Shown: positions 9,807 to 32,920 of the stretch, in pieces
Numbering within the stretch: position 1 is the stretch's first letter
Layout: every line of letters begins with the position of its first letter
Assembly: GCA_963836755.1 (NCBI GenBank)
Contig: CAWIKF010000002.1
Coordinates: 1,792,001 to 1,856,000 of the forward strand
Direction: 5' to 3'
DNA length: 64,000 bases
Origin: an uncultured Verrucomicrobiae bacterium
GTDB lineage: Bacteria > Verrucomicrobiota > Verrucomicrobiia > Chthoniobacterales > Chthoniobacteraceae
The notes under the pieces: generated by a model
What the model saw: the letters and a program-made list of their open reading frames with translations, nothing else
Databases searched by the model: none
What the model was told of the DNA's origin: nothing
Program-made: the position numbers and the translations under genes

Positions 9807-9921
9807 ACTCGGCATTGCTATCGAAAGCGGCACTTTGGGCGCGCATGAGCCGTTTCACTCTGGCGAACATCAATTTGGGCCCGCTTGCGGCTTCCGATGA
9901 GGCGCGGTCATCGTCCCGCGC

Positions 9922-9940
9922 GTTGCTACGGTTTGTTACA
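9922..9940. promoter_or_regulatory. putative integrase arm-type site
   Basis: GTTGCTACGGTTTGTTAC nearly matches GTTGCTACGATTTTGTTAC at 59879..59897; both lie on the phage side of att. Confidence 0.6.
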
Positions 9941-11903: not shown

Positions 11904-11908
11904 CGTTT

Positions 11909-12529
11909 TCAATGCTTTTTTGAGCGCGGTTTTCCTTTTTCGCCTTGTAACTCGGCGCGGCTTTTTGTGACCCGCGATAGTCGATTTTTTTTCTGAGCCG
12001 CGGCGGGTTGGTCCAGGGGAGAGGAAGTTGAGGATGAAGGTGGGGCGGAGGTTCGGACAAATTGCGCAGGGACACTTTGGACGGGGATGTTTTCGTGCGG
12101 CCATATTTCCTTTCGCGGGATCCCAAGCAGCGACGCGAATTCGTCAATGAAACCAATGACGTGCTCATTGCTCTTGGCTTCCACGACGAGAGCCTCGATC
12201 TGGTTGCGGAACTTTTTCGGCAGTGTGTTGATTTGAGAAAAAGAGATCGCGCCGGGATCAGACACGGACTTAACCGCGAGCTTCCCGCGCCATTCCTTCG
12301 GCGTTTCGTCAGTAAGATGAGCGATGATGATGCGTCGAGCGTCAGATTCCTCTAATCCAGGGATGATCCGGGAAAGTGAAGCGGAGTCCGGTCTCGTTCT
12401 CTCCACCAGATAACTCGATAGAGTGGAGAGGGGCATATCCACTCGATCCGCGAACATCTTCTGCGTGACTCCGCTCGTCTTTTTCATCCGCTCCAACACG
12501 TCGTTAAAGGCAACTGTGAAATGACTCAT
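11909..12529 (-). CDS. CI-like XRE HTH repressor
   Basis: TQKMFADRVDMPLSTLSSY…RTRP HTH; divergent from the early operon. Confidence 0.8.
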   Translation of the reverse strand: MSHFTVAFNDVLERMKKTSGVTQKMFADRVDMPLSTLSSYLVERTRPDSASLSRIIPGLEESDARRIIIAHLTDETPKEWRGKLAVKSVSDPGAISFSQINTLPKKFRNQIEALVVEAKSNEHVIGFIDEFASLLGIPRKEIWPHENIPVQSVPAQFVRTSAPPSSSTSSPLDQPAAAQKKNRLSRVTKSRAELQGEKGKPRSKKH

Positions 12530-12554
12530 GCGGGCTTTGTAAAGCATTTACACA

Positions 12555-12603
12555 AATTGCGCAATTATTTCGTTGACATAAATATTCGTATTGCGTAAAT
12601 ACG
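12555..12603. promoter_or_regulatory. divergent genetic-switch region with operator-like palindromes
   Basis: AATTGCGCAATT (12555-12566), TTGACA (12573-12578), CGTATT-GCGTA-AATACG (12587-12603); AT-rich. Confidence 0.7.
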
Positions 12604-12606
12604 CGA

Positions 12607-12798
12607 ATGATGGAAACGAAAACGACAATTGAAGCCGAGATTGCATTGAAAAAGACATTTCTGCGGGCCGCGCTTGCGATTTCCGGCAGCGCGAATTCTT
12701 CGCCGGAAGCGACGAAGGTTGCGGGCAATGAGGCCGCTCGCCTCAAAAGCGAAATCGCTGCACTCGAACAGGAGCAACTGGCGGCGGCGGCGGCCTAG
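12607..12798 (+). CDS. small early protein (Cro position)
   Basis: First ORF after the switch; no clear HTH. Confidence 0.5.
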   Translation: MMETKTTIEAEIALKKTFLRAALAISGSANSSPEATKVAGNEAARLKSEIAALEQEQLAAAAA

Positions 12799-12824
12799 CG
12801 ATTTAAAAGATCGTTCGCCAGACG

Positions 12825-13175
12825 ATGAACCTTCAAATCGAGCAAAGCGAAGTTTTCGCACGCGAACTGGCGCGCTCGCTCGTCGCGGAGATGACGACCG
12901 CGCAGCGGGTCGAACTTTGCCGCGAGCTGATGGATGAAGGGATCCGCCGCGAGCTGGTGCGCGAACTCTCACTCATCAGCGCCGAGGAAGGCGGTGTGAT
13001 GGTGCGTTGGACGGAAGCGGGATTTCGCCGCGTTGCCACGCGCGAGAATTGTCCGGCGATCAAACTCGGCCACAAGCAGCCCGAGCTTTTTCAACTGCGG
13101 GACGTCGCGTCGATGTTCGAACGACTGAAGCTGTGGCCGAAAGGGAAACCCGTGGAGCTGAAAGAGGTCGCATGA
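12825..13175 (+). CDS. phage early protein, possibly excisionase-like
   Basis: ORF in the early operon; C-terminal half faintly resembles Xis/AlpA. Confidence 0.55.
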   Translation: MNLQIEQSEVFARELARSLVAEMTTAQRVELCRELMDEGIRRELVRELSLISAEEGGVMVRWTEAGFRRVATRENCPAIKLGHKQPELFQLRDVASMFERLKLWPKGKPVELKEVA

Positions 13176-13333
13176 AATTCTCGATCATCCTTCGCGACGA
13201 CACGAAACCCGACGGCAGACAATCAAAGGAAATCGCGCGTGCTTGCGACCTTGATAATGCCGTCATCGTGGCGTGGGCGATCTACGGGAAGAACCGCAAA
13301 AACCACGGAAATCCGAATGAACGCTTTGTTTAA
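13172..13333 (+). CDS. hypothetical phage protein
   Basis: ATGA overlap with the upstream stop. Confidence 0.5.
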   Translation: MKFSIILRDDTKPDGRQSKEIARACDLDNAVIVAWAIYGKNRKNHGNPNERFV

Positions 13334-13385
13334 CAACCAAAAACGGGAAGAGCCAACCCGCACAAAAACCGGCCGCTAAAATAAA

Positions 13386-13865
13386 ATGCAAACGTCGCCA
13401 GACGCCCTTCAAAACGCCACCGGCCCAGCGCCGCAAAAAAGGGGAACACGCAAACAGCGTTACGTTCCAAATTCAAATCGTCCCGTTCGGCTTCGCGTGA
13501 AGCTTTCGCGCCGGATGGAAGTCGTCATCGAGGCTTATTGGGATCAATGGTTTGCCGACCTTTATCCTTGGCCGTCGCCAACTGTGTCGAACGCAGTGAG
13601 GACGCGGCTCATCGCTTACAAGCTCGACGATGATCGCGCTCGCATTGCTCGGCGGCGCAAATGCGAGTCTTACTTCAACCTGCTTTCAATTGGTGTGGGT
13701 GATTTATTTTCCGCGCTCAAATTGAGCGATAAACTCAGGGCCGCGGAGAATCGCGCAAGGAAATATTTCTACGATCTAAACCCGACACAGCACATCCGTC
13801 ACGGTCTCTGCTTCGCGTGGTGGGATAAATACTACCGTCCGAACGGCTCATGGAGGAAAGCATGA
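13386..13865 (+). CDS. hypothetical phage protein
   Basis: 159-aa ORF preceded by the conserved leader motif. Confidence 0.65.
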   Translation: MQTSPDALQNATGPAPQKRGTRKQRYVPNSNRPVRLRVKLSRRMEVVIEAYWDQWFADLYPWPSPTVSNAVRTRLIAYKLDDDRARIARRRKCESYFNLLSIGVGDLFSALKLSDKLRAAENRARKYFYDLNPTQHIRHGLCFAWWDKYYRPNGSWRKA

Positions 13866-14087
13866 AAAAGTTCCTCGGCATTTCTTTTCACCGCGTTGTC
13901 GCTCGTTTCGTTTTTCTGCGCTGTTGGTTTTTGGAAGAAAGGTTCCAGCGATTGGAGTTATTACATTTTGGTCGCGGCCTGATGTCATCGTGGGACTTTG
14001 GCTCGCATGGACCGCGTGGGATTTTTTTCTGCGCATCGACCTGGATAAGCTGCGCGAGGAAGCGGACGCAAAGAAAGGTCGCCAGCC

Positions 14088-14342
14088 ATGACGATCTACG
14101 AATGCCCAGCGTGTGAGAAAGGGTTTTCCGGCCACATTCTGCGCGTTCATCTATGCAGTGGGCTGGACGACGCGAAACTGACTGCGCCGCAATATCTCGC
14201 GGCGCTGGAGATCGAGCATGTGAAGCGGCAGATGCTCAAGCTCGCGAACAAGCGCTCGGCCGCCGCTCGGTTGGGCGAGCTGCGCGAGGAGCTGAAGGAG
14301 CTGTTGACGCATTTTCCGAAAGTTGAGGAGGCAAAGCGATGA
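14088..14342 (+). CDS. hypothetical protein with CxxC…H-x-C zinc-finger-like N-terminus
   Basis: YECPACEKGFSGHILRVHLC; ATGA-coupled to the next gene. Confidence 0.6.
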   Translation: MTIYECPACEKGFSGHILRVHLCSGLDDAKLTAPQYLAALEIEHVKRQMLKLANKRSAAARLGELREELKELLTHFPKVEEAKR

Positions 14343-14653
14343 GCGCGAAAAAGCCGCCTGTTAAACAATCGGTGGAATCTCTCATCGCGGAGATTCGAGC
14401 CAGCTTGGAAGTTATCAAAAGCAATCTGGCGTGGCTCATCAAGGCAGACCAGCGCTTCGTAATCGGTCAGCGCGTCGTGTTCAGTAACAAGGCTCGGCAG
14501 CAATTTATCGCCCGCGGGAAGCGAGCCAAATTGAAGGGAACTGTAAGAGGAGTCGATTTATTCTCGATCGAGGTCCAGCTCGATGGCGTGAAGCGGAAGC
14601 GTAGCTATCACCACAGCTTTTTCAACCCGGTCTCAGGGCCGAAACTTTTTTGA
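14339..14653 (+). CDS. hypothetical phage protein
   Basis: Overlap-coupled ORF. Confidence 0.6.
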   Translation: MSAKKPPVKQSVESLIAEIRASLEVIKSNLAWLIKADQRFVIGQRVVFSNKARQQFIARGKRAKLKGTVRGVDLFSIEVQLDGVKRKRSYHHSFFNPVSGPKLF

Positions 14654-16476
14654 AAATGAGCGACGACCTGCGCCTTTCAAAATCGCTTTCGCTGCCGATC
14701 GATGCGGTCACGCAGAAATTCGCGATCCTCGGCCGCACCGGCTCGGGCAAGAGCTATTGCGCGACGAAGCTTTGCGAGCTGATGCTGGATAAGCACGCCC
14801 AGGTGATCGCGCTCGATCCGGTCGGCGTCTGGTATGGGTTGCGCGTTGGCGGGCATTACTCGATCCCGATCTTCGGCGGGTTACATGGCGACGTGCCGCT
14901 GGAATCAAACGCCGGCGAGTTCATCGCGAACTTGATTGTCGATCGGGGACTGAGTGCCGTGCTCGATGTCTCGCAATTCCTCGGCGGCGAACAGGCGAAG
15001 TTTGCCTACGATTTCGCTACGCGATTTTTCTTTCGCAAAAAATCGTCACCGGGCGCGGTGCACCTGTTTGTGGAGGAGTGTCAGGAGTTCGTCCCGCAGA
15101 ACATTTCGGGAGGAGCTCGAGGCGGATTCGAGACGCGGATGCTGAATGCTTTTGAGCGATTGATAAAGCTAGGCCGCAACTTCGGAATCGGCGCGACGCT
15201 CATCTCGCAGCGGCCGCAGGAAGTGAACAAGAAAGCGCTCAACCAGGCTGAGTGCATGCTGGCTTTCCAGATGACCGGTCCGCAGGAGCGCAAAGCCGTG
15301 TCGCTATGGGTTGCCGACAAAGCCGGAAGCCAGGATGTCATCGACACGCTTCCGAAATTGAAGGTCGGTCAATGCCAGGTCTGGAGTCCGCAGTGGTTGC
15401 ACGTCAGCGATACAATTGAGATCGCGGCGAAAAAGAGCGCCGATGTTTCCAGCACACCTAGCGCGGGTGATCACTCCAAACGCGTGGAGTTGAAGGAACT
15501 TTCGGAAGACGAGCTGAGCGCGCTGGCGAAGGACATGGCGGAAACAGTGGAGCGCGCAAAGGCTGAGGATCCGCGCGAGCTGAGGCGCGAAATCGCGCTT
15601 TTAAAAAAACGTGAGTCGGAGCTGATTAAAGCGAATGCCGATCTCGGCCTGATGGCTGTCGAGATTACATCCAAGGAAGTGCCGGTTTTGAAGGATGGGC
15701 AGCTAGCGCGGCTTGAAAGTGCAACAACTGCGCTCGGCAAGCTGCTGACTGTGCAAATCGAACGTCTCGATGCTGCGAACGAGACATTTTCAAAAAACGT
15801 CCGCGAGATTCTCGATCGCTTCGGAGAAACACTTATCCCGCTCCGTGAGGCACTTTCGAAATTGCAGCCAAAGAGTGCAATTTCAACTCTAGTTTTGCGG
15901 AAGCCGCCGATCGTGGCCGCTCGCGAAGAAGCCGCGCCCCTCAAACGAGGCGAGTCGGTGCCGGCCGCTAATGGTGATGGAAGCGGTGTCAGTGCGCCGC
16001 AACAGCGCATCCTCGACGCGCTCGCGAGTTTGGAAAGCTTGGGCCTGCGCGACCTGGATAAGTCGAACGTCGCGGTTTTTGCCGATGCTTCGCCGCGCTC
16101 GAGCGCCTATCAGAACAATGTCAGCCGACTGCGCACGCTCGGGCTGGTCGACTATCCACAACAAGGCCGCGTGAGCCTTACCGATCAAGGTCGCCAACAA
16201 GCCCAATCCAACGGGACGGTGCTAACTCTCGAAGGTCTGCACAACGCTTGGTTTGCCAAACTTCCCGCGCCAAAGGTGCGGATTCTCAAGGAAGTCATCG
16301 GCCTTTATCCGAACCCGATCGGGAAAGCGCCGCTCGCAGACCTTTCCGGCATGTCGCCTTTGTCGAGCGCCTATCAAAACAATGTGAGCAACCTGCGTTC
16401 ACTCGGACTCATCGACTATCCGCAGCAAGGCTACGTCGTAGCCACAGAGCTGCTTTTCCCGCCGTCACTTTCATGA
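14650..16476 (+). CDS. HerA/DUF87-like P-loop ATPase with two C-terminal winged-helix-like repeats
   Basis: GRTGSGKS, LFVEECQEF, GRNFGIG…SQRP; duplicated SSAYQNNVSxLRxLGLxDYPQQG. Confidence 0.85.
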   Translation: MKMSDDLRLSKSLSLPIDAVTQKFAILGRTGSGKSYCATKLCELMLDKHAQVIALDPVGVWYGLRVGGHYSIPIFGGLHGDVPLESNAGEFIANLIVDRGLSAVLDVSQFLGGEQAKFAYDFATRFFFRKKSSPGAVHLFVEECQEFVPQNISGGARGGFETRMLNAFERLIKLGRNFGIGATLISQRPQEVNKKALNQAECMLAFQMTGPQERKAVSLWVADKAGSQDVIDTLPKLKVGQCQVWSPQWLHVSDTIEIAAKKSADVSSTPSAGDHSKRVELKELSEDELSALAKDMAETVERAKAEDPRELRREIALLKKRESELIKANADLGLMAVEITSKEVPVLKDGQLARLESATTALGKLLTVQIERLDAANETFSKNVREILDRFGETLIPLREALSKLQPKSAISTLVLRKPPIVAAREEAAPLKRGESVPAANGDGSGVSAPQQRILDALASLESLGLRDLDKSNVAVFADASPRSSAYQNNVSRLRTLGLVDYPQQGRVSLTDQGRQQAQSNGTVLTLEGLHNAWFAKLPAPKVRILKEVIGLYPNPIGKAPLADLSGMSPLSSAYQNNVSNLRSLGLIDYPQQGYVVATELLFPPSLS

Positions 16477-16877
16477 GCCTTACCCGCACAATCAAAGTTT
16501 CAGTCTCGGCATCGGGAAAAGGTCTCACGACGGAACGCCTCACTTTTGAGACCAGTCCTTTTCCCAACGAAAAGGCTCTGGCCGTTTATCACAAAATTTC
16601 TCGCTGCGCGATCGCGCTGGCGAACGGGAAAAAAATTCCCGATGACCTCGAGAACCTTGCATCCACCTCGGCCGCCGCCGCTCAGGGCAGTGCGCACAGC
16701 CACGCATCATGCGCGTCCGGGTTGGATGCAGATCTTCTCGGCGCAGCGGCGAATGTCCTGCACCTGATCGAAAACCGAGTCGCGCTCGATGAGCTGCGCG
16801 ACGCGCCGTGTTATCGGGAGCTCTTTGCGCGAGTGAAAGCCGTGCAATCGGAAAGCGAGGGGATGCCTATTCGATAA
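16473..16877 (+). CDS. hypothetical phage protein
   Basis: ATGA overlap with the ATPase stop. Confidence 0.55.
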   Translation: MSLTRTIKVSVSASGKGLTTERLTFETSPFPNEKALAVYHKISRCAIALANGKKIPDDLENLASTSAAAAQGSAHSHASCASGLDADLLGAAANVLHLIENRVALDELRDAPCYRELFARVKAVQSESEGMPIR

Positions 16878-16918
16878 CGAACACAAAAATTCCGCGTTGC
16901 CCATAGGGGGAAAACAAA

Positions 16919-16950
16919 GCGCCGCGGCGGAGTCAGATCCGCCGCGGCGC
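16919..16950. terminator. strong GC hairpin, possible leftward terminator
   Basis: 13-bp perfect stem GCGCCGCGGCGGA/TCCGCCGCGGCGC, preceded by AAAACAAA (a U-tract on the minus strand). Confidence 0.5.
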
Positions 16951-16972
16951 AATCCCAAGTCACTTAGTCAAC

Positions 16973-18055
16973 ATGCAAATGACGTTTTACAACTCACATA
17001 CTTTTAGAGAAATCGCAACTTTGCTCCGCACCGAGCCTGTTGCTGGCGGTGTCGAGATCCTGCACGTCTATGGCGCGGACGGGCGGAAGCTACGTGATTT
17101 TGTCGGCCGCCGATCGACGTTGCGGGCACTAGCCGCGCAGCGTTTCGCCGGCGTCCGGCGCGTGGAAGGAAAGGCATGAAGATGCACGAGGCGCTGAGCG
17201 AGCTGCTGATCTTCGCACGCGAGCAAGGCGGCGATGATCAGCCTCACGTCCGCCGCGTGCTCGAGTGCATCGAGGATCTGAGCTTCCGCACGCGCCAGCG
17301 CGATTACAAAAAGCGAAACCGCGACCGGTGCATAAGGTGTGAACAACGCCTCGGCGACGGGATGCTTTGCTGGCCATGCCTGGCTGACGCACCGCGCGAA
17401 GTGCAGCAAGCGTTTAAACAAGCGGTCGGGCTCGATGGAATGCGCGAAGCGACTGAGACAATTTTGAAATGGGCTAGGCGGCACAGCTTCCACGAAAGCG
17501 AGGCCGCATGATCTGTCCGATCTGCCGAAAAGAAGTGCCGCAGCTCGAGCTGCTGACGGATGGATCACTGAGCCAGCTCGCGTGCCCGCATTGCCGGCGC
17601 CGGATGAGCGACGCGAGTTATGGGCAGAGCGATTACGATCAGACACTTCGCGGGCTCTGCAACGTGCTCCTGGACATCGTGGATGTGTCCGCGGCCGTCT
17701 CGCCCACTCTCGGGAGCTTGAAGGCTCACATCGTTGTCTCGCACGCGCTGCGCGCGCTGCCTCCGGTCCGGATCTGCGACGAGCTGCAGAATGTTTTCCC
17801 ATTTGTAAAACAAGAGGAAAGGCGATGCGCATGAGGGAAAAGATTGCCGGCTATGTCGTGGTGACTCCTAGCGGTGAACCGCTCGTGCGCGAAAAGCCGC
17901 GCGGCGGGATTCTGCTTATTTCGGATAGAGCGAGCGTGTTCAATAAGCGGCGCACAGCAGTCGCCATCCTCAGGCGCTCCCACACTTATGCCCGGAAGCA
18001 CAAATTCGCGTGGGCAGACCGCGCGGACCGGATCCTCCCGATCGTGGACGCATGA
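16973..18055 (+). other. four small coupled early CDSs (16973-17179, 17176-17511, 17508-17834, 17825-18055)
   Basis: Overlapping start/stop chain; two carry CxxC pairs. Confidence 0.6.
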
Positions 18056-19113
18056 ATTTTATGACCCAACCTAACTACGACTTCCGAGCAATTGCCCGCG
18101 ACGTTCGTCGGTCGCTGCTGGTGACCGCGAATTTCGAGCGAATCCTGGACGGAGGAAAAATCAAGCACGTGAGGGTGAGCGACCAGATGCGCCGCCTTTT
18201 GCTTTTACTCAATGAGTTGACCTTTGAATCCAATCAGCCTGGCGTCTGGGTTCGTCATCTCATATCGCTCGCGCGGTCTATCTCGATCGACAAAGGCGAT
18301 TGCTCGGAAGCGGTTGCGAAACTTTTGGAATTTGAAGTCGTCGCGGTGGACCGGCGAGACGACGGCTGGCTATGGATCGAACTGCGTGCAGCGAAACTCG
18401 CAGTAAGCGGCCGTGCATTGGTAGCGCGCGCGGCAACAGAGGAAATCGTGCTGATGAATTACGATCGCATCCATCAGCCGGAAATCCCTGGCATCGAAAA
18501 ATCACTGCTTCAAGGGCGAAGCGGAGGTTTTGAGGAAGCCATGAAAGACGTGTCCAGAGATCAGGACCGCGAAGCGTTCGCGAACGTCCAGCCGCGCGGC
18601 GTGCGCGGTTATTGTGGCGTGGTTCCGGTTGGGAATCTCCCAACCAACAGCCGTGAAACGGTAGGGAATCTCCCAACCAGTGAGTTGGGAATCTCCCAAC
18701 CAAAAAGCGTGAGAGTTGGGAATCTCCCAACCGAGCATCTATATGATCGCGCGGGCGCGGACACGCGCGGCGATTCGACAGATCGACAGATCGGCGATTC
18801 GCTCGAATCGGGAGCTGTGGCTCCTGACAATTCGGGCAGAAGGTTTCGAGACAGTGACAAGAATTTCGCTTTCGAGGAGCTACTAGCTCTCGATCAAAAG
18901 CGGGAGCTCGGAGACGAAACCAGCCGCCGCACCTGGATCGGCCGGATCCGCGACAATCCCGGCGCGGTCCTCGAGGCAGTCGGCGAAGTGAAGGATGAGA
19001 TCCGCCGCGGCCAGCGCATCACGTCACCACTCGGCCGCGTGTTCGTGAAAGCGCAATCGATCGCGCGATCAGCCGGCAAAACCTTCCGCTCAATCCTTTT
19101 CATCCAGGTATGA
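18052..19113 (+). CDS. putative replication initiator (lambda O-like organisation)
   Basis: N-terminal wHTH-like segment and internal iteron array. Confidence 0.7.
   Translation: MNFMTQPNYDFRAIARDVRRSLLVTANFERILDGGKIKHVRVSDQMRRLLLLLNELTFESNQPGVWVRHLISLARSISIDKGDCSEAVAKLLEFEVVAVDRRDDGWLWIELRAAKLAVSGRALVARAATEEIVLMNYDRIHQPEIPGIEKSLLQGRSGGFEEAMKDVSRDQDREAFANVQPRGVRGYCGVVPVGNLPTNSRETVGNLPTSELGISQPKSVRVGNLPTEHLYDRAGADTRGDSTDRQIGDSLESGAVAPDNSGRRFRDSDKNFAFEELLALDQKRELGDETSRRTWIGRIRDNPGAVLEAVGEVKDEIRRGQRITSPLGRVFVKAQSIARSAGKTFRSILFIQV
18628..18732. repeat. iterons / putative replication origin
   Basis: GGGAATCTCCCAACC at 18631, 18664, 18687 and 18718; three copies are extended GTTGGGA-ATC-TCCCAAC pseudo-palindromes. 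Confidence 0.8.
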
Positions 19114-19230
19114 ACAATGCAGCGCAAACAGGCAGTTAAACAAATGAATATTTTGTGGACCGAAGCGCAATTTTTAACCGAACACGAATCCGGCGCGTGG
19201 AAAAAACAATCAGTTAAACAACAAAACACT

Positions 19231-20945
19231 ATGCCAGCCCTGAAAAAACCTCGTCCGCAAAAACACGGACTCTCACAGCAAGCGCGAGCGCGAATCTTAT
19301 CGGATGCGAGAGCGCGATGGTCGAAAAGAAAGGCCGCTGCCGCGGCGAGCGACAACGGCCCAGTTTCCCCCCAGAACGGTGCAAAGAATAGCGCGGCTTC
19401 TACCAATGACAAGCTCGCGCCGGCGACTGCGGTGAAGCTACTCGACGCGGCGATCGAGCGCGCTGCAGTGAAGGCTGGTGTGAGTGTTGCTGATTTTAAA
19501 AAGCTGCCGGCGCGCGATCAAAACGCCTATCTCGCTGAGCAGCGCGGCGCGAAGACGGCGGAAGGAACTGAGCCAGGAGTGCAGTATTACGACCCGGCGC
19601 TGATCGATCTGTCGCCTTTCAACCGAACGTATTTCGATGAAGGCAAAAACGCGGAGCTGATTGAGAGCGTCCGGATCTATGGAGTAGCCCAAAACGGTAT
19701 CGGCCGGCCGCACCCGACGAAGCCAGGCCGCATCGAGCTGGTGGCTGGGCAGCGGCGATGGAACGCGGCGAAGATCACGAAGCGGCCGATGCCATTGAAG
19801 GTGATGCCGATGACCGATGAGCAGGCAATCGAGCTGCAGGCCGTGGAAAATTTGCATCGCGAGGATCTGAGTCCAATCGACGAAGCGGTGAAGTATCAGC
19901 AGCTCATCGAATGCTATGGAAAGCGCGGGATTTTGAAGACAGCCGCGGTGGACATGGTGAGTGAGAAACTGAAGGTCTCGGTGTCTGGCATCCATGCTTC
20001 GCTGAAGCTGTTGAAGCTACCGGATGAAGTGCAGGAAGCGGTGCGCGAAATGCGCCTGCCACCTAGCCACGCGGACCTGCTCGGAAAGCTCGAGCACGAT
20101 CAAGACGCGCAAAAGCTGGCAGCGCGTCAGATTTTGAATCCGAAAAGAAGCGACCAAAGCGAGGAAGGTGTGATGAGTTTTCGCGAGGCAAAGCGGTTAG
20201 TCGATCACGAGCTGGAGAAGATGGAGAACCGAACAGCGTTTAACAAACTGCGCGATGAGTTTGTCCGCAAAGGTGATCTGGTTCTTTCGGCGGCCGACAA
20301 CGCGAAGCTGTTCGTGCACGAGGGCAATCCGTGGCACCTGACTCACAATTCCGGCTTCGTAAAACCGGATGAATACTGCAACGAGTTTAATTGCGACACA
20401 TGGAAGAAGGCTTGCGGGAAAAATGCTCCCGATCTGTGCTGGCACAGGCTCGCGACGGTGCGCCGGTGATCTTGTGGCCGCTGAGTTATGCGAGATCGGC
20501 AGCGCAAAGGAATCGACCGCGCAGCGAGACGAACCAGAGATGGAGCCGGCCGGAAAGCGACGTGCGCGCGGAGCGAGAGCACAAAGCGCGTGCGAAATTT
20601 TATGAAGCGTTGATGGGAGTGATCGCGCAGAAGGCTGAGGAAATGGACGGGAACTCGCCTCAGCTCTGGCGACTGCTTTTCGGGTTCATCGTCAATCGCG
20701 TTGGGAATGATGCGTGCCGGCGTGTGCGCAAGCGTCGCGATCTGACGCACAAAAAAGATGACCGCGATGAAGTCACGATCGAGGCGTCGCTAAAAACTGC
20801 CACGACGAAGCAATTGAGGGGCGCCGTTGCTGAACTCATCGCAGCGTGGCACGCGCCGAGTCTGCATCAAAGCGGTTGGACTAACGATGCGAAGGAAATG
20901 GCACAAGCTCTCGGGATCACGCTGCCGGCGTGGAAAGTGTCATGA
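19231..20945 (+). CDS. ParB/RepB/Spo0J-family protein; frameshift near 20430
   Basis: LVAGQRRWNAA, VENLHREDLSPIDEA, HTH; continues in ORF 20391..20945. Confidence 0.85.
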
Positions 20946-21306
20946 AGATGCCGAAATACATTTTGACGATCGGCTTCAATGAATACGTCGTTGCCGACAA
21001 CAAAGGACTCGCGACGATCATGGCAGTGCTCGAGGACGCAGTTCCGGTGCGGGCTCATCTCACAGCAAAATCGAAATCAGCCTTGAATGGACTGAAGAAG
21101 GTGAGGAAGCGATGCTTGCTCAATCGACCACTGTTTCATTGGTTCGCATTCCGCCTGGCGTGACGTGGACGCGAAGAACGAAGGCCGGAACAGTTGAGAT
21201 CATCAGGCCAGTAGCTCTCAACGCTGGCGACGGTGTTAAGCGAAGCGGCAAAGCTGTTAAGAAGCTGAACGGCCGGCAGCCATTGCAACTGGAGTTCGGA
21301 CGATGA
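20942..21306 (+). CDS. hypothetical protein, apparently frameshifted near 21060
   Basis: ORFs 20930..21163 and 21112..21306 read as one gene. Confidence 0.45.
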
Positions 21307-21469
21307 ACGATGCAACGCAACAATCTGTTAAGCAAGAGCGTATTGCAGCGAACCGGAGGGACGCGATGCACCCACCCCCACGCAAGGAATCTCTTCGCTC
21401 TAGGTCACGAACGGGCAGTCTTGGCGACTCCCTGCGTTTTCGTATCTGTGATGCAAATTCAAACTTCCC

Positions 21470-22230
21470 ATGAAATCTAAACGCACCCCATCTCCTGAAG
21501 CCTCTGGAATTCCGGTCCACTGCAAATACGACAAGATCGTTCCGGCCGCTGAGCTGAAACTTTGGAATGAGCAACCGAACTCGAAAAATCCGCAGGTGCA
21601 TCCGCCCGCTCAGCTGGACCGCTATGAAACAGTCGTCGCGAAAAATGGCTTCCGGCGCTGCGCCGTGGTCTCGTCGCTTTCCGGTTGTGTTACAAAAGGA
21701 AACGGCCTCGTCCAGATGGCTCGCCGCCGCGGTTGGTCTGTGCCGATCGAGATCCAGAACTATCAAAGCCGCGCCGAGGAATTGCGCGACGTCGCCGCCG
21801 ATAACCAACTCGCGAAACTAGCGCAGACGGACAAGGACGCGCTTCGTCAGCTCCTTGGCGAGCTCGATCCTGGTGAAGTCCAATTCGCGGCCGTCAGCGC
21901 AGACGAATTTGATAGACTCATTTCCGAAACAAACATCCCAGAAGCCGAGTTTCCGATCACCGCAAAGCTAGGAGAATCCTATGACTACGTCCTCATCTTC
22001 ACCACGAACGCGACCGAATTTGCGTTCCTCCAAAACCTCCTCGGCATCCGGCCGGAGCGGTCCTACAAAAAGCAAGGCGTCGGGCTCGGTCGCGCGATCC
22101 CGCTCGAGCGCGCCCTTGCCGCCATCCGTGCTAACCGTCATTCCCTCGATGTCCAGGGCGGCGACGATGACGACACACCGGCTGCTGCCAAACGCGATCG
22201 TGTGCGTGCCGGAAAGCCAGCGAGCGATTA
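21470..22230 (+). CDS. ParB-N-like protein of the phage DNA-modification type (3' end uncertain)
   Basis: NPQVHP…NGFRR…GNG…ADNQLA ParB-N-like pattern, then YDYVLIF…GLGRAI. Confidence 0.7.
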
Positions 22231-22928
22231 CGCAAAAGTCGTCGGGAGTGACCTAATCCTCACGCATCCCGATTCAGTCAAAGGTCTCACGCCGAAACTC
22301 AATTGGATCCTCGATTGTTGGGACCGCTTCGCGACGCAGGAATGCCGCGGGCTCGATGCGACGTTCGTTCATAGCGACCGACGCGATCGTTTTCATCGAC
22401 GACGATATTGCCAGCCTGCAGCGCTGCTTCGTCGAGAAAGGCGAGCAAGCCACAATCCGAGATCCTCAGCTCATCGAGGAGATCATCACCAACACGGCGC
22501 GCGTGGCGGCCGATGTCGGCGCATACTATTTCGGCTGGGAAGCCAGCAACGGCGCCGTGCTGTTTTACACCGGCCTCAAACCGTTCGCGTTGACCGGCTA
22601 CATCAACGGCTGCGCGATGGGATTCCGCCGCGGCCATGGCCTGCGCTTCGACTCACGCATCGTCGCGAAGAACGACTTCGACATCGCCGCGATGAACGCG
22701 CACAAGCATCGCATTTGTTTAAAGGATTGTAGATACAGCTTTTGCCAAAAGGAAACATTCACCGGTCGCGGCGGCCAGGCTGCTTTCCGCACATCGAAGA
22801 CCGAAAAAAACGATGTCGAACTTCTGCAAAAGAAGTGGGGCGACATCTTCCACTTCGGTGGCCACAGCGCCACGCGGAAACGCGATTACGCCGGCGTCCA
22901 GAAGATCACGATGCACCTGCCTTTTTAG
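22128..22928 (+). CDS. GREB1-like / TET-associated (TAGT) GT-A glycosyltransferase; frameshifts near 22225 and 22378
   Basis: Reconstructed VIPSMSRA…VCVPESQ…NWILD…VFIDDDI…KNDFD…GGQ…LQKKWG. Confidence 0.7.
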
Positions 22929-22987
22929 AAAAAACTTGCGTCCCACAATTTATCAAGGCGAGGTTCATGCCCCTTTAGAGCCACGCC

Positions 22988-23290
22988 ATGAACATCACGA
23001 AAGCAACGGCCAGTATCGAAGGCCTCGGCTACCCGCTTTTGCGGCTCACAATAGACGGCCATCCCGCCTACGTGTCGGAGCCAAAACAAACTCTGCTCGA
23101 CCAAGGCATCGTCGTGCTGCTCGACGAAGCTGGTTATTGGGAAAATACGGTATCCGCCATTTTCCGTCCTGATTCAGTCGCGCAAAAGCGAAATGAACTC
23201 ATGGTCTTGCGCGGCGCCGTGGCCGATCCAAAGCTCGCGGGCATCGTTACGCGCTTCCTAAATGGGGAAACGGGAGACCTACTCCTCTAG
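22988..23290 (+). CDS. hypothetical protein
   Basis: 100-aa ORF with protein-like composition. Confidence 0.55.
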   Translation: MNITKATASIEGLGYPLLRLTIDGHPAYVSEPKQTLLDQGIVVLLDEAGYWENTVSAIFRPDSVAQKRNELMVLRGAVADPKLAGIVTRFLNGETGDLLL

Positions 23291-23306
23291 AATACCGCGT
23301 AGTTTT

Positions 23307-23966
23307 CTAGCGCCCGCGCAGCCGCTCCTCCGTCATCGACTGCAGCTCCGCGCGCCGCTGCTCCGCCGTCATTGTGTCTGGAAACAGTTGCTTTACAGGC
23401 TGAGGAGCTGGCTCGGGAGGAAGATCATCGGAAATAAATTCCATCGTGTAAGCGGCAACCCTTCCCTTCAAATCATCCCTCAAAGCGACCACCTTGATCT
23501 TCTCGCCCGGCGTCAGGCGATATGGATAACCTTTCAGCAACACCCGACCGGAAGCAATGGACCTTGGGTTGTTCGCTGGAACCAGCTTGCCGCGATACAA
23601 AAAATAAGTCTCACCGTATTCCTTGCTCTCCTCTCGTGACGCGAGCCCTGCGAGCTGCGCGATCTCGCCGGCACCGGTGCGAGAAGACACAACCCAGTTT
23701 TGCCCGAAAAAACGATCCTCTGCACAATCCACTAAAACTCCCTCCTCGCGCACCGCGCTGACCTCGCCGCGGACGAGAGAAAGTTGACCGAATCTTGCGT
23801 GCCGCGGAGAAGGAGGCGGCGTCGCGGTTGGGATTGGATCTGTGGTTGCGGCCGCAGCGGAAAGTCTTTGCTGTTTGAAAGCGGCAGCTCTCCGGTCCAA
23901 CTCGTGAATGCGCAGGTAGCCAAATGCAAAGATGACGAGGAAGGTGAGAACGAGCAGTGTTTTCAT
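23307..23966 (-). CDS. membrane-anchored hypothetical protein
   Basis: Likely start MKTLLVLTFLVIFAFGYL (TM helix). Confidence 0.65.
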   Translation of the reverse strand: MKTLLVLTFLVIFAFGYLRIHELDRRAAAFKQQRLSAAAATTDPIPTATPPPSPRHARFGQLSLVRGEVSAVREEGVLVDCAEDRFFGQNWVVSSRTGAGEIAQLAGLASREESKEYGETYFLYRGKLVPANNPRSIASGRVLLKGYPYRLTPGEKIKVVALRDDLKGRVAAYTMEFISDDLPPEPAPQPVKQLFPDTMTAEQRRAELQSMTEERLRGR

Positions 23967-24017
23967 CTTTTTCTTTGGGAAGCTCTCGGCAACCGAATCG
24001 TGCTCCGGCTGCACATA

Positions 24018-24272
24018 TCAGTGGGGAAACTTGGCGCGAATTTTCAAGGGATACAATTCTTGAATCGGCACATCGAGCACGCCGGAGAGAAACGCCAGGT
24101 CTCGATCCTCGATCGCGCGAAATCCCAGCTCGATGCGTGCAATGATGTCTCGTGAAACATCCCATCCAGCTAGCTGGCATTTTGAAGCGAGCTGGCTTTG
24201 TGAAAGGCCGCGCAGGTTGCGCCACCGCACCACTTCGCGGCCGCAGACATTGCGAATTTTGCGTGTGCTCAC
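24018..24272 (-). CDS. XRE-family HTH regulator
   Basis: RNLRGLSQSQLASKCQLAGWDVSRDIIARIELG. Confidence 0.85.
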   Translation of the reverse strand: MSTRKIRNVCGREVVRWRNLRGLSQSQLASKCQLAGWDVSRDIIARIELGFRAIEDRDLAFLSGVLDVPIQELYPLKIRAKFPH

Positions 24273-24309
24273 GCTTGCACCGTAGCCGCCTGACAGATGG
24301 AATGGCTGC

Positions 24310-25198
24310 GTGCCAAAGCACACAAACGCCGCAGCGCTCAAGCTGCCCGACCAATTGCTGGTCCGTTATTTCCGCAACGGCGAAATCGAAAACGTCGCCG
24401 ACGTGGAGGAAAAGGATGGCAATGTCGGCGTCGTCTTGAAATTTCCCAAAGGCCCGCGCATCGACCACTGGCGCGACTTGGGCGGCGGCCTCGGCTTCAT
24501 ACCGTCCGGTGATTGACTCACTGCACAGCTCCGTAGAAAATCGCGAACGTGAACAAAGAGGACGTGGATGAAGCAGTCGCGAAATGGCTGCCGCAGGTTG
24601 GCCTGCCTCCCGCGCCGGAGCCTGGCGTAAAGGATCTGCGCGGCAGATCGATCCGCGTCGCGAAGTTTACGGACGACGAAACCGCGCGATTCTTTTTTCC
24701 GCGGCGGTCGCTGTTGTTTCAACAACGCATGGTGCGCGTGCTGGCGGTGCAGCTGCGCAAACGCGGCGCAAAGATCGAGAGCGTGCAGCTCACGATCGAG
24801 GAATACGCGCGCTGGCAGGATGAGAGCGGGGAGCCAGACTCGCCGGAGCTGCGCTACCGATACGCGACCGAGTTGCCGTGATGTCCGCTAAATTCAAAGT
24901 CGAAATTACAAGCCATGTCGGCGACAAGCCGGAGCTGATCGCGACTGTCTATTGGTCGGAAGAAACAGGCGTGGTTTGCGACAATGCTGTCGTTGGCGAT
25001 GAGCTTTCCTTCGGGCTCGCGGTGCCCCCGCGTGGCGAGCCGATTTATGCCGAAGCTGGGCGCGCATTTTTATATGCGCTGAAGTTCGAATTCAGCGGCA
25101 TCGTCCGCGCTGGCCATCCTGTCGAATGTGCCGAAGTAAAAGGGGATCCTGTGCCGGCGCTGCGTGGCCAATCCCCCTGGCAAGGTCGCAGGGCTTAA
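24310..25198 (+). other. three hypothetical CDSs (24310-24516, 24549-24881, 24878-25198)
   Basis: Co-directional ORFs; the last two overlap by GTGA. Confidence 0.55.
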
Positions 25199-25369
25199 TT
25201 CCGCAAGCTGCTCGCACACCGGCAGCTTGAGAGCATCGGCCTTGCCGGTGTGAGGAAAATTTTCGGCACGATTGGTTTTTCGCGACGTCACGGGTGGCGG
25301 CTGCGAAGTTTAACACGTAGTTAAACAAAAAACCGGATGAGGCGACCGACCAAACGGCCAATCAAAATC

Positions 25370-26101
25370 GTGCAAAGCACACCATCAGAAGTAATCGAAA
25401 AACTACGGAAACTGCTCCGCCTGGCTTCGGATAAAGGAGCCACTCAAGGCGAGGCGGAAGCCGCGATGCAAAAAGCGCAAGAGATTGCGCTTCGTTATAA
25501 GGTGCAGCTCGCCGGCATCAATCATGCCGAGCGGCCCGCCGAGGAATACACGGAAGACCGGCAGCAACGCCGGAAAACGTTCCAAGCAAAATACGTCGAG
25601 TGGATTGTCAGGAAGCACTTCAACGTGACTTTTGTGTATGGCTGCAATGGCGAGCTTTTCGTCATCGGCAAGCCTACCGACATCGAGTTCGCCAAGTGGG
25701 TCATGGAATATCTGGAAGGCGAATTCCCGCGGCTCTGGACGCGCTACCAGCGCGAGACCAGTTGCGGGCAGGGCGCGCGCGTAAATTACTTTTACGGCGT
25801 TTATGTCGGGCTCGATGCAAAACTCACTGAGAACAAGCAGCGCGTCGAAGGAGAGGCGATCATTGAGGCGGAGTTGAATGGCGATAAACGCATCGCCGCC
25901 AATTACCAGCTCGCAGTGGTCAACGATCAAAAGGCGCTCGCCGCTGCGGTGAAACGCTTCCATCCGAACGTTCGGAGTGGCGGCCGCGCGACTTTAAATC
26001 TTCGTCACGAGAGCGCGATCGCCGCGGGTCAGCGCGCTGGCCGCAACATCAATATCAACCGTCCTCTGGGCGGCGGTTCCACAGCTGGGAGGCTTCGCTA
26101 A
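25370..26101 (+). CDS. DUF2786-domain protein
   Basis: IEKLRKLLRLA…EAEAAMQKAQEIALRY N-terminus. Confidence 0.8.
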   Translation: MQSTPSEVIEKLRKLLRLASDKGATQGEAEAAMQKAQEIALRYKVQLAGINHAERPAEEYTEDRQQRRKTFQAKYVEWIVRKHFNVTFVYGCNGELFVIGKPTDIEFAKWVMEYLEGEFPRLWTRYQRETSCGQGARVNYFYGVYVGLDAKLTENKQRVEGEAIIEAELNGDKRIAANYQLAVVNDQKALAAAVKRFHPNVRSGGRATLNLRHESAIAAGQRAGRNININRPLGGGSTAGRLR

Positions 26102-26102
26102 A

Positions 26103-26408
26103 ATGCCACTCACTCCACCGCTCCAAAAACCGGCCTTCGAGCGCGGCCAACTGATGATGACTCGCGGCATCCTGCAGCTATTTAGCAAAGATGAAAGAGT
26201 GCTGCGCGAGCTGCTCGTGTTGCTCGCCCGGCATCTCACAGGTGACTGCGGCGACATGAGCGAGGAAGACGTGTGGGCAAACCTCCGCGCAATTTTGAGC
26301 GGCGGCGAGCGCGTCTTTTCCTCGTATCAAACGGAGTTCGGCAAGATCTGGATAATCACCGAAGCCGACAGATCCGCGACAACGATCATGCTGCCAGAGG
26401 AATACTGA
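26103..26408 (+). CDS. conserved plasmid/ICE-type small protein
   Basis: RHLTGDCGD…AN…SSY…IWIITEADRSATTIMLPEEY pattern. Confidence 0.75.
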   Translation: MPLTPPLQKPAFERGQLMMTRGILQLFSKDERVLRELLVLLARHLTGDCGDMSEEDVWANLRAILSGGERVFSSYQTEFGKIWIITEADRSATTIMLPEEY

Positions 26409-26507
26409 AGGTTCCCGTTTGTCCGTCGCATCAGTGGCGGCGGACATCGGGGAGCAATCACGCTCCACAAAAACGGAAGAGGCAACCGACCAAACGGCCA
26501 TTTAAAC

Positions 26508-27200
26508 ATGAGAACACAACGCAAAACCGCTGCGGCTCCTGCTGCAGCTTCATTCCAACCTGACTTCCGCGTCGTCGGCAAAGACGAACCCGCGCCGGCA
26601 GCCGGAGTCAGGAAACTCAACCTCGGCGGATTGGTAAAAACCGCCGAGAAAAAATCAAGCAGCCATCCGGCGCTCACGCTGTCGGAGGAAAGCCGCGCGC
26701 TCCTCGAGCAGTTCGTGGAGATCGCGCCGCAGTTCAAGGAGCTGGAGAAAAAGGTGAAGAGCCTCAAAACTCAAATCGCACCTTCCATCAAGGCCGATTA
26801 CTTCGCTCAGCTCGAGGGCTCGAGTCTCGACGGCTCCAGCATGAGCGCGCAGATCGGCGCGCAGCCGGTGAAGCTTGTCTTCAAGGACAGCTACTCCACG
26901 CTCTGCAACGATGACGCTCCGCTGGTCGCAGCGATCGGCGCCGAATTGGTCGCGCGGCACTTCCGCCAAGTCACCAAGCTGACGCTCGACCTCGACAAGA
27001 TTGCCGAGGAAAAGCAGGAGAAGTTCATCGGCGCGATTCTCGCCGCTGCCGAAAAACTCGGCATCAGCGACGGGATCAGCGCGAAGCAGTGCATCCAGCC
27101 GCGCGCAGGCTTCCACGCCGCGCGCACGTCGGTGCTGACGCCGGAGCAAAACGTCGCTGTGGACGCGATTATCCCGCTCTCGGCATATCCGCAAATCTAG
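26508..27200 (+). CDS. hypothetical protein
   Basis: 230-aa ORF behind the conserved leader. Confidence 0.75.
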   Translation: MRTQRKTAAAPAAASFQPDFRVVGKDEPAPAAGVRKLNLGGLVKTAEKKSSSHPALTLSEESRALLEQFVEIAPQFKELEKKVKSLKTQIAPSIKADYFAQLEGSSLDGSSMSAQIGAQPVKLVFKDSYSTLCNDDAPLVAAIGAELVARHFRQVTKLTLDLDKIAEEKQEKFIGAILAAAEKLGISDGISAKQCIQPRAGFHAARTSVLTPEQNVAVDAIIPLSAYPQI

Positions 27201-27202
27201 CC

Positions 27203-27811
27203 ATGCACGCGGATAGCTTCCCAAGTTATCCCGCGCGGCCGGTCAACGGCGGGGCGCTTCACTGCGCCCTGCCGAAGATCGGGGCGTGGGTCTGGCAACC
27301 GAAGGTCGATGACTGGCGCGCGATCATCCATGCGCCCAGCGGCCGCGTCTGGAACCGGCATGGCAAACCTTCATCCGTCACAGGCAAGCTGACGGCAGCG
27401 TTTCACTTTTTGCGCGACTGCCCTTTCGAATGGCTCGATGCCGGCATCATGGAATGCCGGAACGACATGATGCGCGCTTCGCTCGTCATCTTTGACTTTT
27501 TTCCGACCAACAACCCGTCGCAAACGATGCGCGAGCGGCGCGTGCTACTGGAACACGAGTTTGAAATTCTGCCGCTGGCAACGCGGCTTCTCGCGAATGG
27601 TTTTTCGGTGCGCGAGCGCGTGCTGCTCATCAATCAATCCGAAGGCAGCGGCTTGGAGCTTTACCAGCAACTCCAGCGAGAAAACGCAACGCTCGGCCGC
27701 AAGTTCTATGAGGGTGTCGTCGCCAAGCGCCTGGACAAACCTTACCCGCTGCAGCTCCGCAGCCCATCCACGGAAACGCCGTGGATGATGAAACATCGTT
27801 TCGACCAATGA
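27203..27811 (+). CDS. ATP-dependent DNA ligase-like adenylation domain only
   Basis: QPKVDDWR (KxDGxR-like), VIFD, EGVVAK, WMMKH; no OB domain follows. Confidence 0.75.
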   Translation: MHADSFPSYPARPVNGGALHCALPKIGAWVWQPKVDDWRAIIHAPSGRVWNRHGKPSSVTGKLTAAFHFLRDCPFEWLDAGIMECRNDMMRASLVIFDFFPTNNPSQTMRERRVLLEHEFEILPLATRLLANGFSVRERVLLINQSEGSGLELYQQLQRENATLGRKFYEGVVAKRLDKPYPLQLRSPSTETPWMMKHRFDQ

Positions 27812-27952
27812 AAGCACCGGCTTTGCCAGCGAACACTATATTTAAACAGACGTTGCTTTTTCGCGACGTCACGACTGGCGAAGTCGAAACTATCCCTGTC
27901 AGTGAAACCACAAAAACGGAAGAGGCGACCGACGAAACGGCCATTTAAACAA

Positions 27953-28294
27953 ATGCAAAATCAGATTACGAAAATCCGCTCAGTCGGAGTTTCCAAAATC
28001 AATCAGCTCGTGCGCGCGGCCGCGCACTTGAAAACTCTCCAGCCGGCTTTTGCCGAGTGGAGCGCGGGCGACGTCTATGTCTGCAAAAAAACGGGTGATT
28101 ACCGTTACCGCTTCGGCGTTGCGGGCAAGTCGGTGACGCCTTGGAGCGCGACGGCGCGCAAAGTGTTCGCGTCGCCTGCAGCGCTGGCCTTTGCCGCGCT
28201 GGTGCTTGGTGAGGAAAAGAAAGTCACGCGGGAGCTGCCAGTCGAGAACGGCCGCGCGAACGTCATCAGCATGGCGACGGGAAAGGCGGCGTAA
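27953..28294 (+). CDS. hypothetical protein
   Basis: ATG directly behind the conserved leader. Confidence 0.65.
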   Translation: MQNQITKIRSVGVSKINQLVRAAAHLKTLQPAFAEWSAGDVYVCKKTGDYRYRFGVAGKSVTPWSATARKVFASPAALAFAALVLGEEKKVTRELPVENGRANVISMATGKAA

Positions 28295-28489
28295 ATGAAG
28301 AGCCTCACCGTCTCAAAACTATTCCGGCCGCTGCGCTGGAAAGAGCAATTCGTCCCATTCATCCGGTGCAGTGGGAAATGGCTGGAAGCCGCAGGCTTTC
28401 ATCCCGGAAACAAAGTCACCGTGCGAGTCGAGAATGGCGCGCTCATCATCGAGCCGCTCAAACCGGAGGAATGCAATTATGCAAAATAA
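28295..28489 (+). CDS. symE: SymE-family (AbrB-fold) toxin-like protein
   Basis: PFIRCSGKWLEAAGFHPGNKVTVRVENGALII. Confidence 0.8.
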   Translation: MKSLTVSKLFRPLRWKEQFVPFIRCSGKWLEAAGFHPGNKVTVRVENGALIIEPLKPEECNYAK

Positions 28490-29115
28490 TCTGCATAAAA
28501 TGCATAATCTCATCGGCCCCGCCGCTGCCGTTCTGGCAGCGGCGCGGGCGCTGGTGGCGAAGGAAAATCCCGTCAAGCTGCTGCTCGATGGCTATCCCGG
28601 CGTCGGCAAAACGGAGATCGCCAAAACATTGGTCGCGGAGATCACGCGCTGCGCGCACGCCGATTGAAAAAATCAATGGGCAAAGCCTGACGGTGGACGT
28701 GGTGCGCCAATGGCGCGAGCGCACCGCATACGGCAACCTGTTCAGCGCGTGGACTGCCAAGCGCATCGAGGAGATTGACCAGATGAGCGCGAGCGCGATG
28801 GCGGAAATGCTCACGCATCTCGACGAGCTGCCGCGCAATCACGCCATCATAGCCAGCACGAACGAATTTGCGAAATTGCGGGCCCAGAGCCAAGGCCGGC
28901 TCGAGTCGCGCTTTATTCGCTTCCACGTGGCCGCGCCGAGCGTTGAGGAAACGACGCGCTTCCTGATGTCGAGATACCGTCTCACGGCATCCGCGGCAAA
29001 GACGATCGCAGTCGGCAGCGTGCCGGACGGTTGCCTGCAAAGCGAAGGTTGCAACCTGCGCACAGCCATCAATGACGCAATCGGATTCAATGCGGCGAGA
29101 AAGGCGGCAGCATGA
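28479..29115 (+). CDS. AAA+ ATPase (clamp-loader/RarA-like); frameshift near 28660
   Basis: DGYPGVGKT Walker A, IEEIDQM Walker B-like, ASTN, LESRF. Confidence 0.75.
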
Positions 29116-32917: not shown

Positions 32918-32920
32918 ATC

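Follow-up and report, generated by a model that had tools for sequence, protein, structure and literature searches.

Why should one short sequence recur just ahead of four start codons in a single prophage, and is it read as DNA or as RNA? The question is raised by a 64,000-nt stretch of an uncultured Verrucomicrobiae bacterium of the family Chthoniobacteraceae (contig CAWIKF010000002.1; this whole stretch is called the window here), in which an earlier note had pointed to four copies of a conserved hairpin leader in front of early and accessory genes. The four copies are indeed present on the plus strand, copies 3 and 4 agree at 42 of 44 nt, and copy 1 carries the extended arms CGGG/CCCG around a 9-nt loop. 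What had been overlooked is that the 'GSC' of the loop can pair with the 'CGGCC' tail and that the two vary in concert. Loop triplet and tail covary across lined-up homologues, which is why the element is read here, with high confidence, as a minimal H-type RNA pseudoknot in 5' leaders.

The architecture spans about 26 nt: an A/C-rich lead-in, a first stem (S1) of 3-5 bp, loop L1 (ANGA), a second stem (S2) of 3 bp, loop L2 (RA) and loop L3, which has 6-12 nt and ends in AAAC(N); an A-rich spacer and the start codon follow. S2 is the pairing of the loop with a downstream GGC/GCC. The copies, the genes behind them and one related gene are as follows (aa, amino acids).

13344..13373, plus strand: pseudoknot copy 1; S1 CGGG 13344-47 / CCCG 13357-60; L1 AAGA; L2 AA; S2 GCC 13352-54 / GGC 13371-73; L3 of 10 nt; ATG 13386, 12 nt downstream
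13386..13865, plus strand: downstream gene 1, 159 aa, without a Pfam, PHROG or NCBIfam match
24310..24516, plus strand: 68-aa gene without a pseudoknot in the window; 10 collected homologues carry one
25334..25359, plus strand: pseudoknot copy 2; S1 CGG/CCG; L1 ATGA; L2 GA; L3 ACCAAACG; S2 GGC 25341-43 / GCC 25357-59, a compensatory swap; GTG 25370, 10 nt downstream
25370..26101, plus strand: downstream gene 2, a DUF2786 + DUF7168 protein
26474..26499, plus strand: pseudoknot copy 3; S1 CGG/CCG; L1 AAGA; L2 AA; L3 ACCAAACG; S2 GGC 26481-83 / GCC 26497-99; ATG 26508, 8 nt downstream
26508..27200, plus strand: downstream gene 3, encoding a 230-aa phage protein of unknown function; the next gene, at 27203-27811, is ligase-like
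27917..27942, plus strand: pseudoknot copy 4; S1 CGG/CCG; L1 AAGA; L2 GA; L3 ACGAAACG; S2 GGC 27924-26 / GCC 27940-42; ATG 27953, 10 nt downstream
27953..28294, plus strand: downstream gene 4, a 113-aa unknown protein, followed by a SymE-family gene at 28295-28489

Fold and covariation of the element

How far do these copies depart from chance? The hairpin pattern alone (AAAACGG-N9-CCG, one mismatch) is at chance level, with 12 matches against 8.6 expected. The element appears to be structured in the sense strand, as the earlier note proposed, but as a pseudoknot and not as a simple hairpin. Nested folds of the copies are no better than shuffles. With the full pseudoknot descriptor the window gives 4 matches, whereas 299 of 300 shuffles give none and the remaining one gives a single match. 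On both strands of the 3.18-Mb host genome the strict descriptor finds these 4 copies only, to which a relaxed version adds one chance-like match; a relaxed genome-wide pseudoknot scan (51 matches versus 23 in the reversed control) yielded no convincing chromosomal copy. DNA contigs from the host sequencing run, where cover is patchy, show no variant at the copies.

Homologues were collected with S2 pairing required, save for one broken copy (L253). Of these 105 elements, L023, L138 and L335 (likely chance matches in coding regions) and the doubtful L179 were removed, leaving a curated set of 101 copies in 67 loci. S2 in lined-up homologues is mostly GCC...GGC, with GGC...GCC in window copies 2-4 and UCC...GGA or GCG...CGC elsewhere. 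Pairs in the curated set are GC 92, UA 6, GU 2 and CG 1 at the first S2 position, CG 91, GC 7, AU 2 and AG 1 at the second, and CG 98, GC 2 and UG 1 at the third; the first S1 position has CG 69, GC 29, AU 2 and UG 1. All 3 S2 pairs and 2 of the 3 core S1 pairs covary, and what marks an H-type pseudoknot, two crossing stems with compensatory changes in each, is present. L2 is RA in 104 of 105 elements and L3 ends in AAAC(N), both features being partly set by the search descriptor.

The MAFFT alignment (A1) left the 3' half unaligned, and pairs were therefore counted on the equal-length subsets A2 and A3, which hold 30 and 15 of 68 distinct cores. In A2, 180 of 180 cells are paired, and in A3 104 of 105 (99%); none of 500 shuffles equals these values, and slid registers reach 54% at most. 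Within one orthologous family of 61-70-aa genes, four different double changes occur among 10 carriers.

A model (R1) built from A1 with the S1 pairs only matches 27 of 150 genomes of the host family at E<=0.05. The 23 R1 matches inspected are mostly noise, with five new ones that have S2 and a nearby ATG (L384, L385, L386, L395 and L396). Here the inner S1 pair has become A-U in L384 and L395, S2 is UCC/GGA in L385, and L396 has GCU/AGC with a spacer of just 4 nt; R1 matches outside the training set contribute CGAG/CUCG, UCC/GGA and GCU/AGC. In L406 S2 is broken and the spacer is 16 nt.

Does the second stem appear where it was not asked for? Homologues were re-collected with S2 left free in the patterns, the counts covering the matches listed. 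When both stems are left free, 21 of 43 distinct matches are fully Watson-Crick in both, and the remainder look like chance; two matches have AGG/CCU in S1. In the S2-blind test (loci L050-L340), S2 pairs in 76 of 78 leader-context matches versus 12 of 85 elsewhere among the matches listed and, with the common GCC triplet set aside, in 12 of 14 versus 9 of 79 (Fisher p 5e-8). Covariation in homologues, the check that the earlier note had proposed, is thus seen in both the S2-blind test and the subset pair counts. Some points tell against this reading of the fold: the context thresholds of the S2-blind test were chosen after data inspection and its rows are related, one S2 type is common to 82 of the 105 elements, and two stems of 3 bp would be barely stable unless tertiary contacts or a partner assisted, nor does nested folding favour them.

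Leaders, carriers and prophage setting

How is the element placed with respect to transcript and gene? The end of S2 lies 9-11 nt from the start codon in 98 of 105 elements, in a search that allowed 6-14 nt, and in the curated 101 the mean distance is 9.97 nt (standard deviation 0.78). Putative promoters are found further upstream. Among the 100 leaders scored, 32 carry a putative sigma70-like site whose end is 7-69 nt upstream, and in 9 there is a CGACGT-16/17-GAAANT motif, which ends 21-47 nt upstream; neither count has a control set. The latter motif is a putative promoter of an activator-dependent or alternative-sigma (non-sigma70) kind; it precedes window copies 2 and 4 and, within the window's phage group, L038, L045, L111, L233, L266, L294 and L295. 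A sigma-70 scan of 11500-30500 gave 4 sites where 6.0 are expected, none at the copies.

25283..25310, plus strand: putative promoter/activator motif, CGACGT-16 nt-GAAGTT; 23 nt separate its end from copy 2
27864..27891, plus strand: second putative promoter motif, CGACGT-16 nt-GAAACT; 25 nt separate its end from copy 4

The variable distance of the putative promoters, set beside the fixed spacing to the start, suggests that the element probably forms part of the transcript and takes its position from the start codon, not from the promoter. Its place downstream of promoters predicted from sequence runs counter to the possibility, given in the earlier note as a sign of a DNA site, that it lies upstream of the transcription start. 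In L026 (976-1070), a tandem second element occurs 54 nt downstream, inside the start of the open reading frame (ORF), and has no start codon of its own.

Internal copies follow long hairpins that lack a U-tract and stand after stop codons; a C/A-rich linker comes next, then the knot. In several phages, leader cassettes of about 90 nt that consist of these three parts are near-identical before different small genes (L030, 2700-3690; L014, L031, L036, L040 and L044), and they are candidates for both ribonuclease (RNase) III sites and shuffling points. The window has one such module ahead of copy 3.

26412..26466, plus strand: long GC-rich hairpin, then a small GGAGC/GCTCC hairpin, preceding copy 3

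The GC-rich hairpin has a 10-bp core (26420-29 / 26437-46), no U-tract and a position directly after the stop codon at 26408; folding of 26409-26512 gives z = -2.48 against shuffles. The small hairpin (26451-26466), with its conserved AATCAC loop, also stands ahead of the pseudoknot in L045 (near 8790) and L195 (near 1415), and one of the three phages that have it sits outside the window's closest relatives. Cassette shuffling at the repeats, which the earlier note suggested, is partly supported as a by-product: a single S2 swap is common to copies 2-4, whereas GCC/GGC is kept in most orthologous copies of other phages. Shuffling is more plausibly an outcome of the repeats.

Which elements carry the pseudoknot, and before which genes? 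The exact window-type pattern found 0 stretches in viral contigs. With mismatches, 2 of 300 other genomes of the order matched, and their variant pattern found 18 metagenome and 22 viral stretches. The 41 larger loci form groups of 16 (including the window) and 22, plus 3 singletons; L324 has 8 ORFs in common with the window prophage, and no ORF family runs across the two groups and the singletons in the fetched flanks, a shared gene elsewhere being possible. The 105 downstream proteins fall into 49 clusters. Pfam families among 75 of them are RadC-like JAB (6), SymE (5), ArdA (3), ArdC, DUF2786, DUF7673 and DUF2958 (2 each), and amidoligase, DUF4160 and DUF3037 (1 each), most proteins having no family; these bear out the idea that the element precedes early and anti-defence genes. 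Island-like copies precede the antitoxin gene higA in a higB-higA operon, DUF3037 after HipA_2, DUF433 and DUF4160.

Record titles of carriers name Chthoniobacterales, Chthoniobacteraceae, Spartobacteria and Verrucomicrobiae (L324, L332, L333, L337); two short contigs are binned as Pirellulaceae and Proteobacteria (L326, L331). A fixed pattern occurs in 7 of 151 family genomes, the host included, two of these matches being chance-like, and in 400 other genomes of the phylum it gave 3 matches, all chance-like. None of 20 model matches inspected outside the family is canonical, and blastn against cultured phages returned chance matches only. The element is close to family-specific among the genomes searched. 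L414 (G158:C312:4995-5023, minus strand) is a possible out-of-family variant with a 2-nt L1, intact S1 and S2, and an ATG 10 nt downstream.

As to the window's own genes, gene 1 offers just a weak ribbon-helix-helix lead (Atlas scores <0.9), and a search for related loci with the 26508 protein gave no relative. The protein cluster of gene 4 has 11 members, every one behind the element. Gene 2 is taken to start at GTG 25370 because its homologues align from 25373; the in-frame ATG within L1 of copy 2 (25337) was rejected as a start.

The prophage itself has the following outline.

9783..59960, strand not assigned: host prophage of about 50 kb, bounded by 24-bp attachment (att) repeats at 9783-9806 and 59937-59960
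9936-11312, minus strand: integrase gene
11909-12547, minus strand: helix-turn-helix (HTH) repressor-like gene

The right att repeat falls in the 3' end of a tRNA-Ser gene. ParB-like genes and a lambda-type head module (terminase, portal, S49 protease) are also encoded, and the flanking genes (DUF1501, PSD1, PSCyt) are of the Planctomycetes-Verrucomicrobia-Chlamydiae (PVC) type. Between the repressor-like gene and 12607-12798 (plus strand) is a divergent repressor/cro-like switch region (12560-12606) with a TTGACA box and inverted repeats. Three 29-nt direct repeats at 18628-18743, each with an inverted repeat inside, are possibly replication-origin iterons within ORF 18010-19113. The accessory cluster ends with a 77-aa ORF that is flanked by a 39-nt direct repeat (29623-29661 and 30142-30180, 92% identical). 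Restriction-modification-like cargo follows at 30240-34003, with minus-strand HATPase and phrog_6203 pieces, Vsr and a C5 methylase spread over two overlapping ORFs (33106-33441, 33392-34003). At the right end (58529-59721) are glycosyltransferase-like and GH75 chitosanase-like genes, of which the latter may be a lysis enzyme.

Possible roles in translation initiation

What could a small knot at this position do? Host starts show no enrichment of Shine-Dalgarno (SD) sequences (24% versus 27% shuffled, n=266; 22% versus 29%, n=193; crude start sets), and 0 of 102 element leaders reach -8.4 kcal/mol with the host 16S tail. A is found at -3 in 82% of leaders. Median minimum free energy of the start region is -1.7 kcal/mol in element leaders (n=100) versus -6.1 in host starts (n=1006), and nested folds leave most of bases -8 to +3 unpaired (mean 0.72). 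The host encodes full-length rpsA and RNase III; RNase J and CsrA were not found in its 96% complete genome. Among relatives, SDs are lacking genome-wide in Verrucomicrobiales (PMC10798248, in part), and low SD use is described for Akkermansia in part of PMC10783764.

Near-identical loops recur in unrelated elements of one host family only, which points to a host-encoded partner, and the constant spacing from an open start without an SD suggests the ribosome. There are precedents: H-type pseudoknots are ligands of ribosomal protein S1, and translation of tisB is promoted by a 5' pseudoknot (sections of PMC7708055), and the rpsO pseudoknot docks on the 30S platform (sections of PMC3858243). These pointers and precedents together place first the reading of the element as an SD-independent translation-initiation enhancer that recruits host ribosomes, a reading to which we would give an even chance, both the binding partner and the direction of effect being inferred. 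The unstructured A/C-rich stretch and the knot would be captured by a component of the host 30S subunit, e.g. bS1 or the platform cleft of the SD helix, and the fixed A-rich spacer of 9-11 nt would then bring the start codon into the P site. Within the host family, phages and islands would copy the module before genes needed fast and in quantity, such as those for anti-restriction proteins and some antitoxins. A bolder form is possible, if doubtful: in this SD-poor lineage the 26-nt knot might stand in structurally for the SD helix, docking in the platform of the 30S subunit and gauging the position of the start codon. It would then amount to a minimal bacterial internal ribosome entry site (IRES), adopted by unrelated phages and toxin-antitoxin (TA) islands to out-compete host mRNAs.

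Several observations sit uneasily with an enhancer. No copy stands ahead of a host core gene, descriptor and model finding the 4 prophage copies only in the host genome, and the rpsA, dnaK and groES leaders are without the element. The knot is missing from the window gene at 24310 although 10 homologues have it, and toxin-like genes (SymE five times, DUF4160) are also found downstream, for which an enhancer is not an obvious fit. The host start sets are crude, and the published low-SD result covers Verrucomicrobiales, not the host family. Lastly, invariant loop bases suit a repressor or ligand pocket equally.

Might the element, then, be a translational operator or ligand sensor? In this case the conserved loops would be bound by a host protein or a small molecule; the knot would thereby be stabilised where the ribosome footprint ends, and initiation repressed or gated, as with rpsO/S15, T4 gene 32 and small pseudoknot riboswitches. 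Loop bases are invariant while the stems covary freely, some downstream genes are toxin-like, and leader pseudoknots are often operators (PMC3014915 and PMC3858243, each in part). The knot, however, covers neither an SD nor the start codon, the bases around which are mostly unpaired; the downstream proteins make up 49 clusters, carriers share no element-encoded protein in the fetched DNA, CsrA was not found in the host, and no riboswitch family matches (Rfam gave no match to preQ1-I, guanidine-III or SAM-II, and the downstream genes are unrelated mobile-element genes). An operator is considered unlikely. The translational role that the earlier note envisaged fits the data, and activation fits them better than an operator does.

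RNase III-like cutting of early transcripts is known from the T7 early region, and a role in RNA stability comes next, as a somewhat less likely one: early transcripts would be cut at the upstream hairpins and the knot would cap the downstream pieces against decay. The internal copies behind long hairpins without U-tracts, just past stop codons, fit this in a host that encodes RNase III, as do some first-gene copies that lie only 7 nt after a putative -10 box and so at the extreme 5' end. For a cap, spacing to the start codon would not have to be constant, yet it hardly varies, and the gap to the predicted 5' end differs by tens of nucleotides between copies; nor was RNase J found in the host.

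Antitermination, the first proposal of the earlier note, is very improbable. A boxB/nut-like or put-like site would agree with the place of the copies: the prophage is lambda-like, and they lie in its early transcripts after putative promoters. A lambdoid nut site, though, has a simple 5-bp stem with a pentaloop, a boxA and a cognate phage N protein, and N-boxB pairs are phage-specific. Here the 9-nt loop is used in a second stem, the fold is tied to start codons and recurs before single genes and two-gene TA loci, and near-identical sequence occurs in phages with no common ORF family in the fetched DNA, boxA being outside the search; carriers share no element-encoded protein. Hardly any credence can be given to a DNA-level site (operator, promoter part or recombination point) with incidental complementarity. 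In its favour, S1 is an inverted repeat, copies are homogenised within a phage (window 2-4; the ~90-nt L030 leaders) and the same leader precedes different genes. Against it, recognition of double-stranded DNA leaves crossing complementarity with a variable L3 length unexplained, pairs other than Watson-Crick are G-U when read on the sense strand (4 cases; no A-C case in the S2-blind set) and the putative promoters lie upstream at variable distance.

The interest of the enhancer reading is that start-codon choice and high initiation rates without SD signals are an open question in bacteria. Ribosome structures for Verrucomicrobiales are called for in part of PMC10798248, and the Bacteroidia case is treated in part of PMC13000457. 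An element of 26 nt with natural compensatory variants and a fixed spacer makes SD-less initiation directly testable. It may also mark anti-defence genes among the unknown downstream proteins and provide an expression part for a poorly tractable bacterial group.

Comparison with known systems

Is the element a known RNA? Repeated leader cassettes in phage early regions include the T7 RNase III sites, the PeSL of T4-type phages and the start-associated sequences of mycobacteriophages, and a repeated module before small early genes may drive shuffling; to our knowledge, none of these is a covarying pseudoknot. Rfam gave nothing relevant, at the gathering cut-off or at E<=10, for the window copies or for 137 kb of carrier loci. 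A literature search met no description of the motif, although candidate-RNA listings in parts of the supplements of PMC5737381 and PMC10690425 could include it.

Several leader pseudoknots are alike in kind. The tisB 5' standby pseudoknot of E. coli and S1 ligands selected in vitro by SELEX (systematic evolution of ligands by exponential enrichment) are H-type knots that, together with a single-stranded region close by, recruit S1/30S and promote initiation (PMC7708055, in part). tisB acts about 100 nt upstream of a sequestered ribosome-binding site, whereas the present knot is a modular repeat 10 nt from an open SD-less start, a comparison made by description only. The E. coli rpsO (S15) and phage T4 gene 32 knots also control initiation from leaders (parts of PMC3858243 and PMC3014915); they serve autoregulation of a single gene by its own product, in contrast to at least 49 protein clusters here, and the rpsO knot covers coding sequence, with the gene 32 knot placed some 67 nt upstream. 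Coremin (xrRNA-C) and luteovirus frameshift pseudoknots are likewise very compact H-type folds with A-rich loops (PMC10321173, in part). Coremin, however, needs a YGAD hairpin loop and non-canonical pairing, in contrast to the 9-nt loop and Watson-Crick S2 of the element, and it also requires a 5'-3' exonuclease that it can block, whereas RNase J was not found in the host.

The same topology is present in DUF805b (RF02914, clan CL00115), a cis-regulatory orphan with a 4-bp S1 that begins with purines and GG, a 4-purine L1, a loop gCC and a 3' GGc-A; its S2 was read by eye from the consensus letters, as the Rfam structure line shows S1 only. A 4-bp S1, a 4-nt purine L1 and a loop gCC complementary to the 3' GGc are found in the element too, whereas the GAAAA loop and AGAGUA tract are not: L1, L2 and the L3 end are GGAA, GAAAA and AGAGUA in DUF805b, and ANGA, RA and AAACN here. 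Against a cut-off of 35.6 bits, DUF805b gave no report at E<=10 for the 91-nt stretch of copy 3 or for 2.8 kb with copies 2-4; the copies are not among 14 weak matches in the genome scan (150 of 1568 candidates scored), and 0 of 150 family genomes reach the cut-off. With 150 of 336 candidates scored, DUF805 (RF03081; 68 positions, 51.1 bits) matches the host genome weakly at one other place and does not match at the copies. The element is a DUF805b look-alike, not a member, with shared ancestry and convergence indistinguishable. It represents a well-supported, apparently uncatalogued RNA pseudoknot family, a DUF805b-like kind of leader with an inferred function. Should it prove to be a translation-initiation enhancer, it could give a function to the orphan DUF805b clan, and the two would together suggest a general class of lineage-specific pseudoknot ribosome-binding sites.

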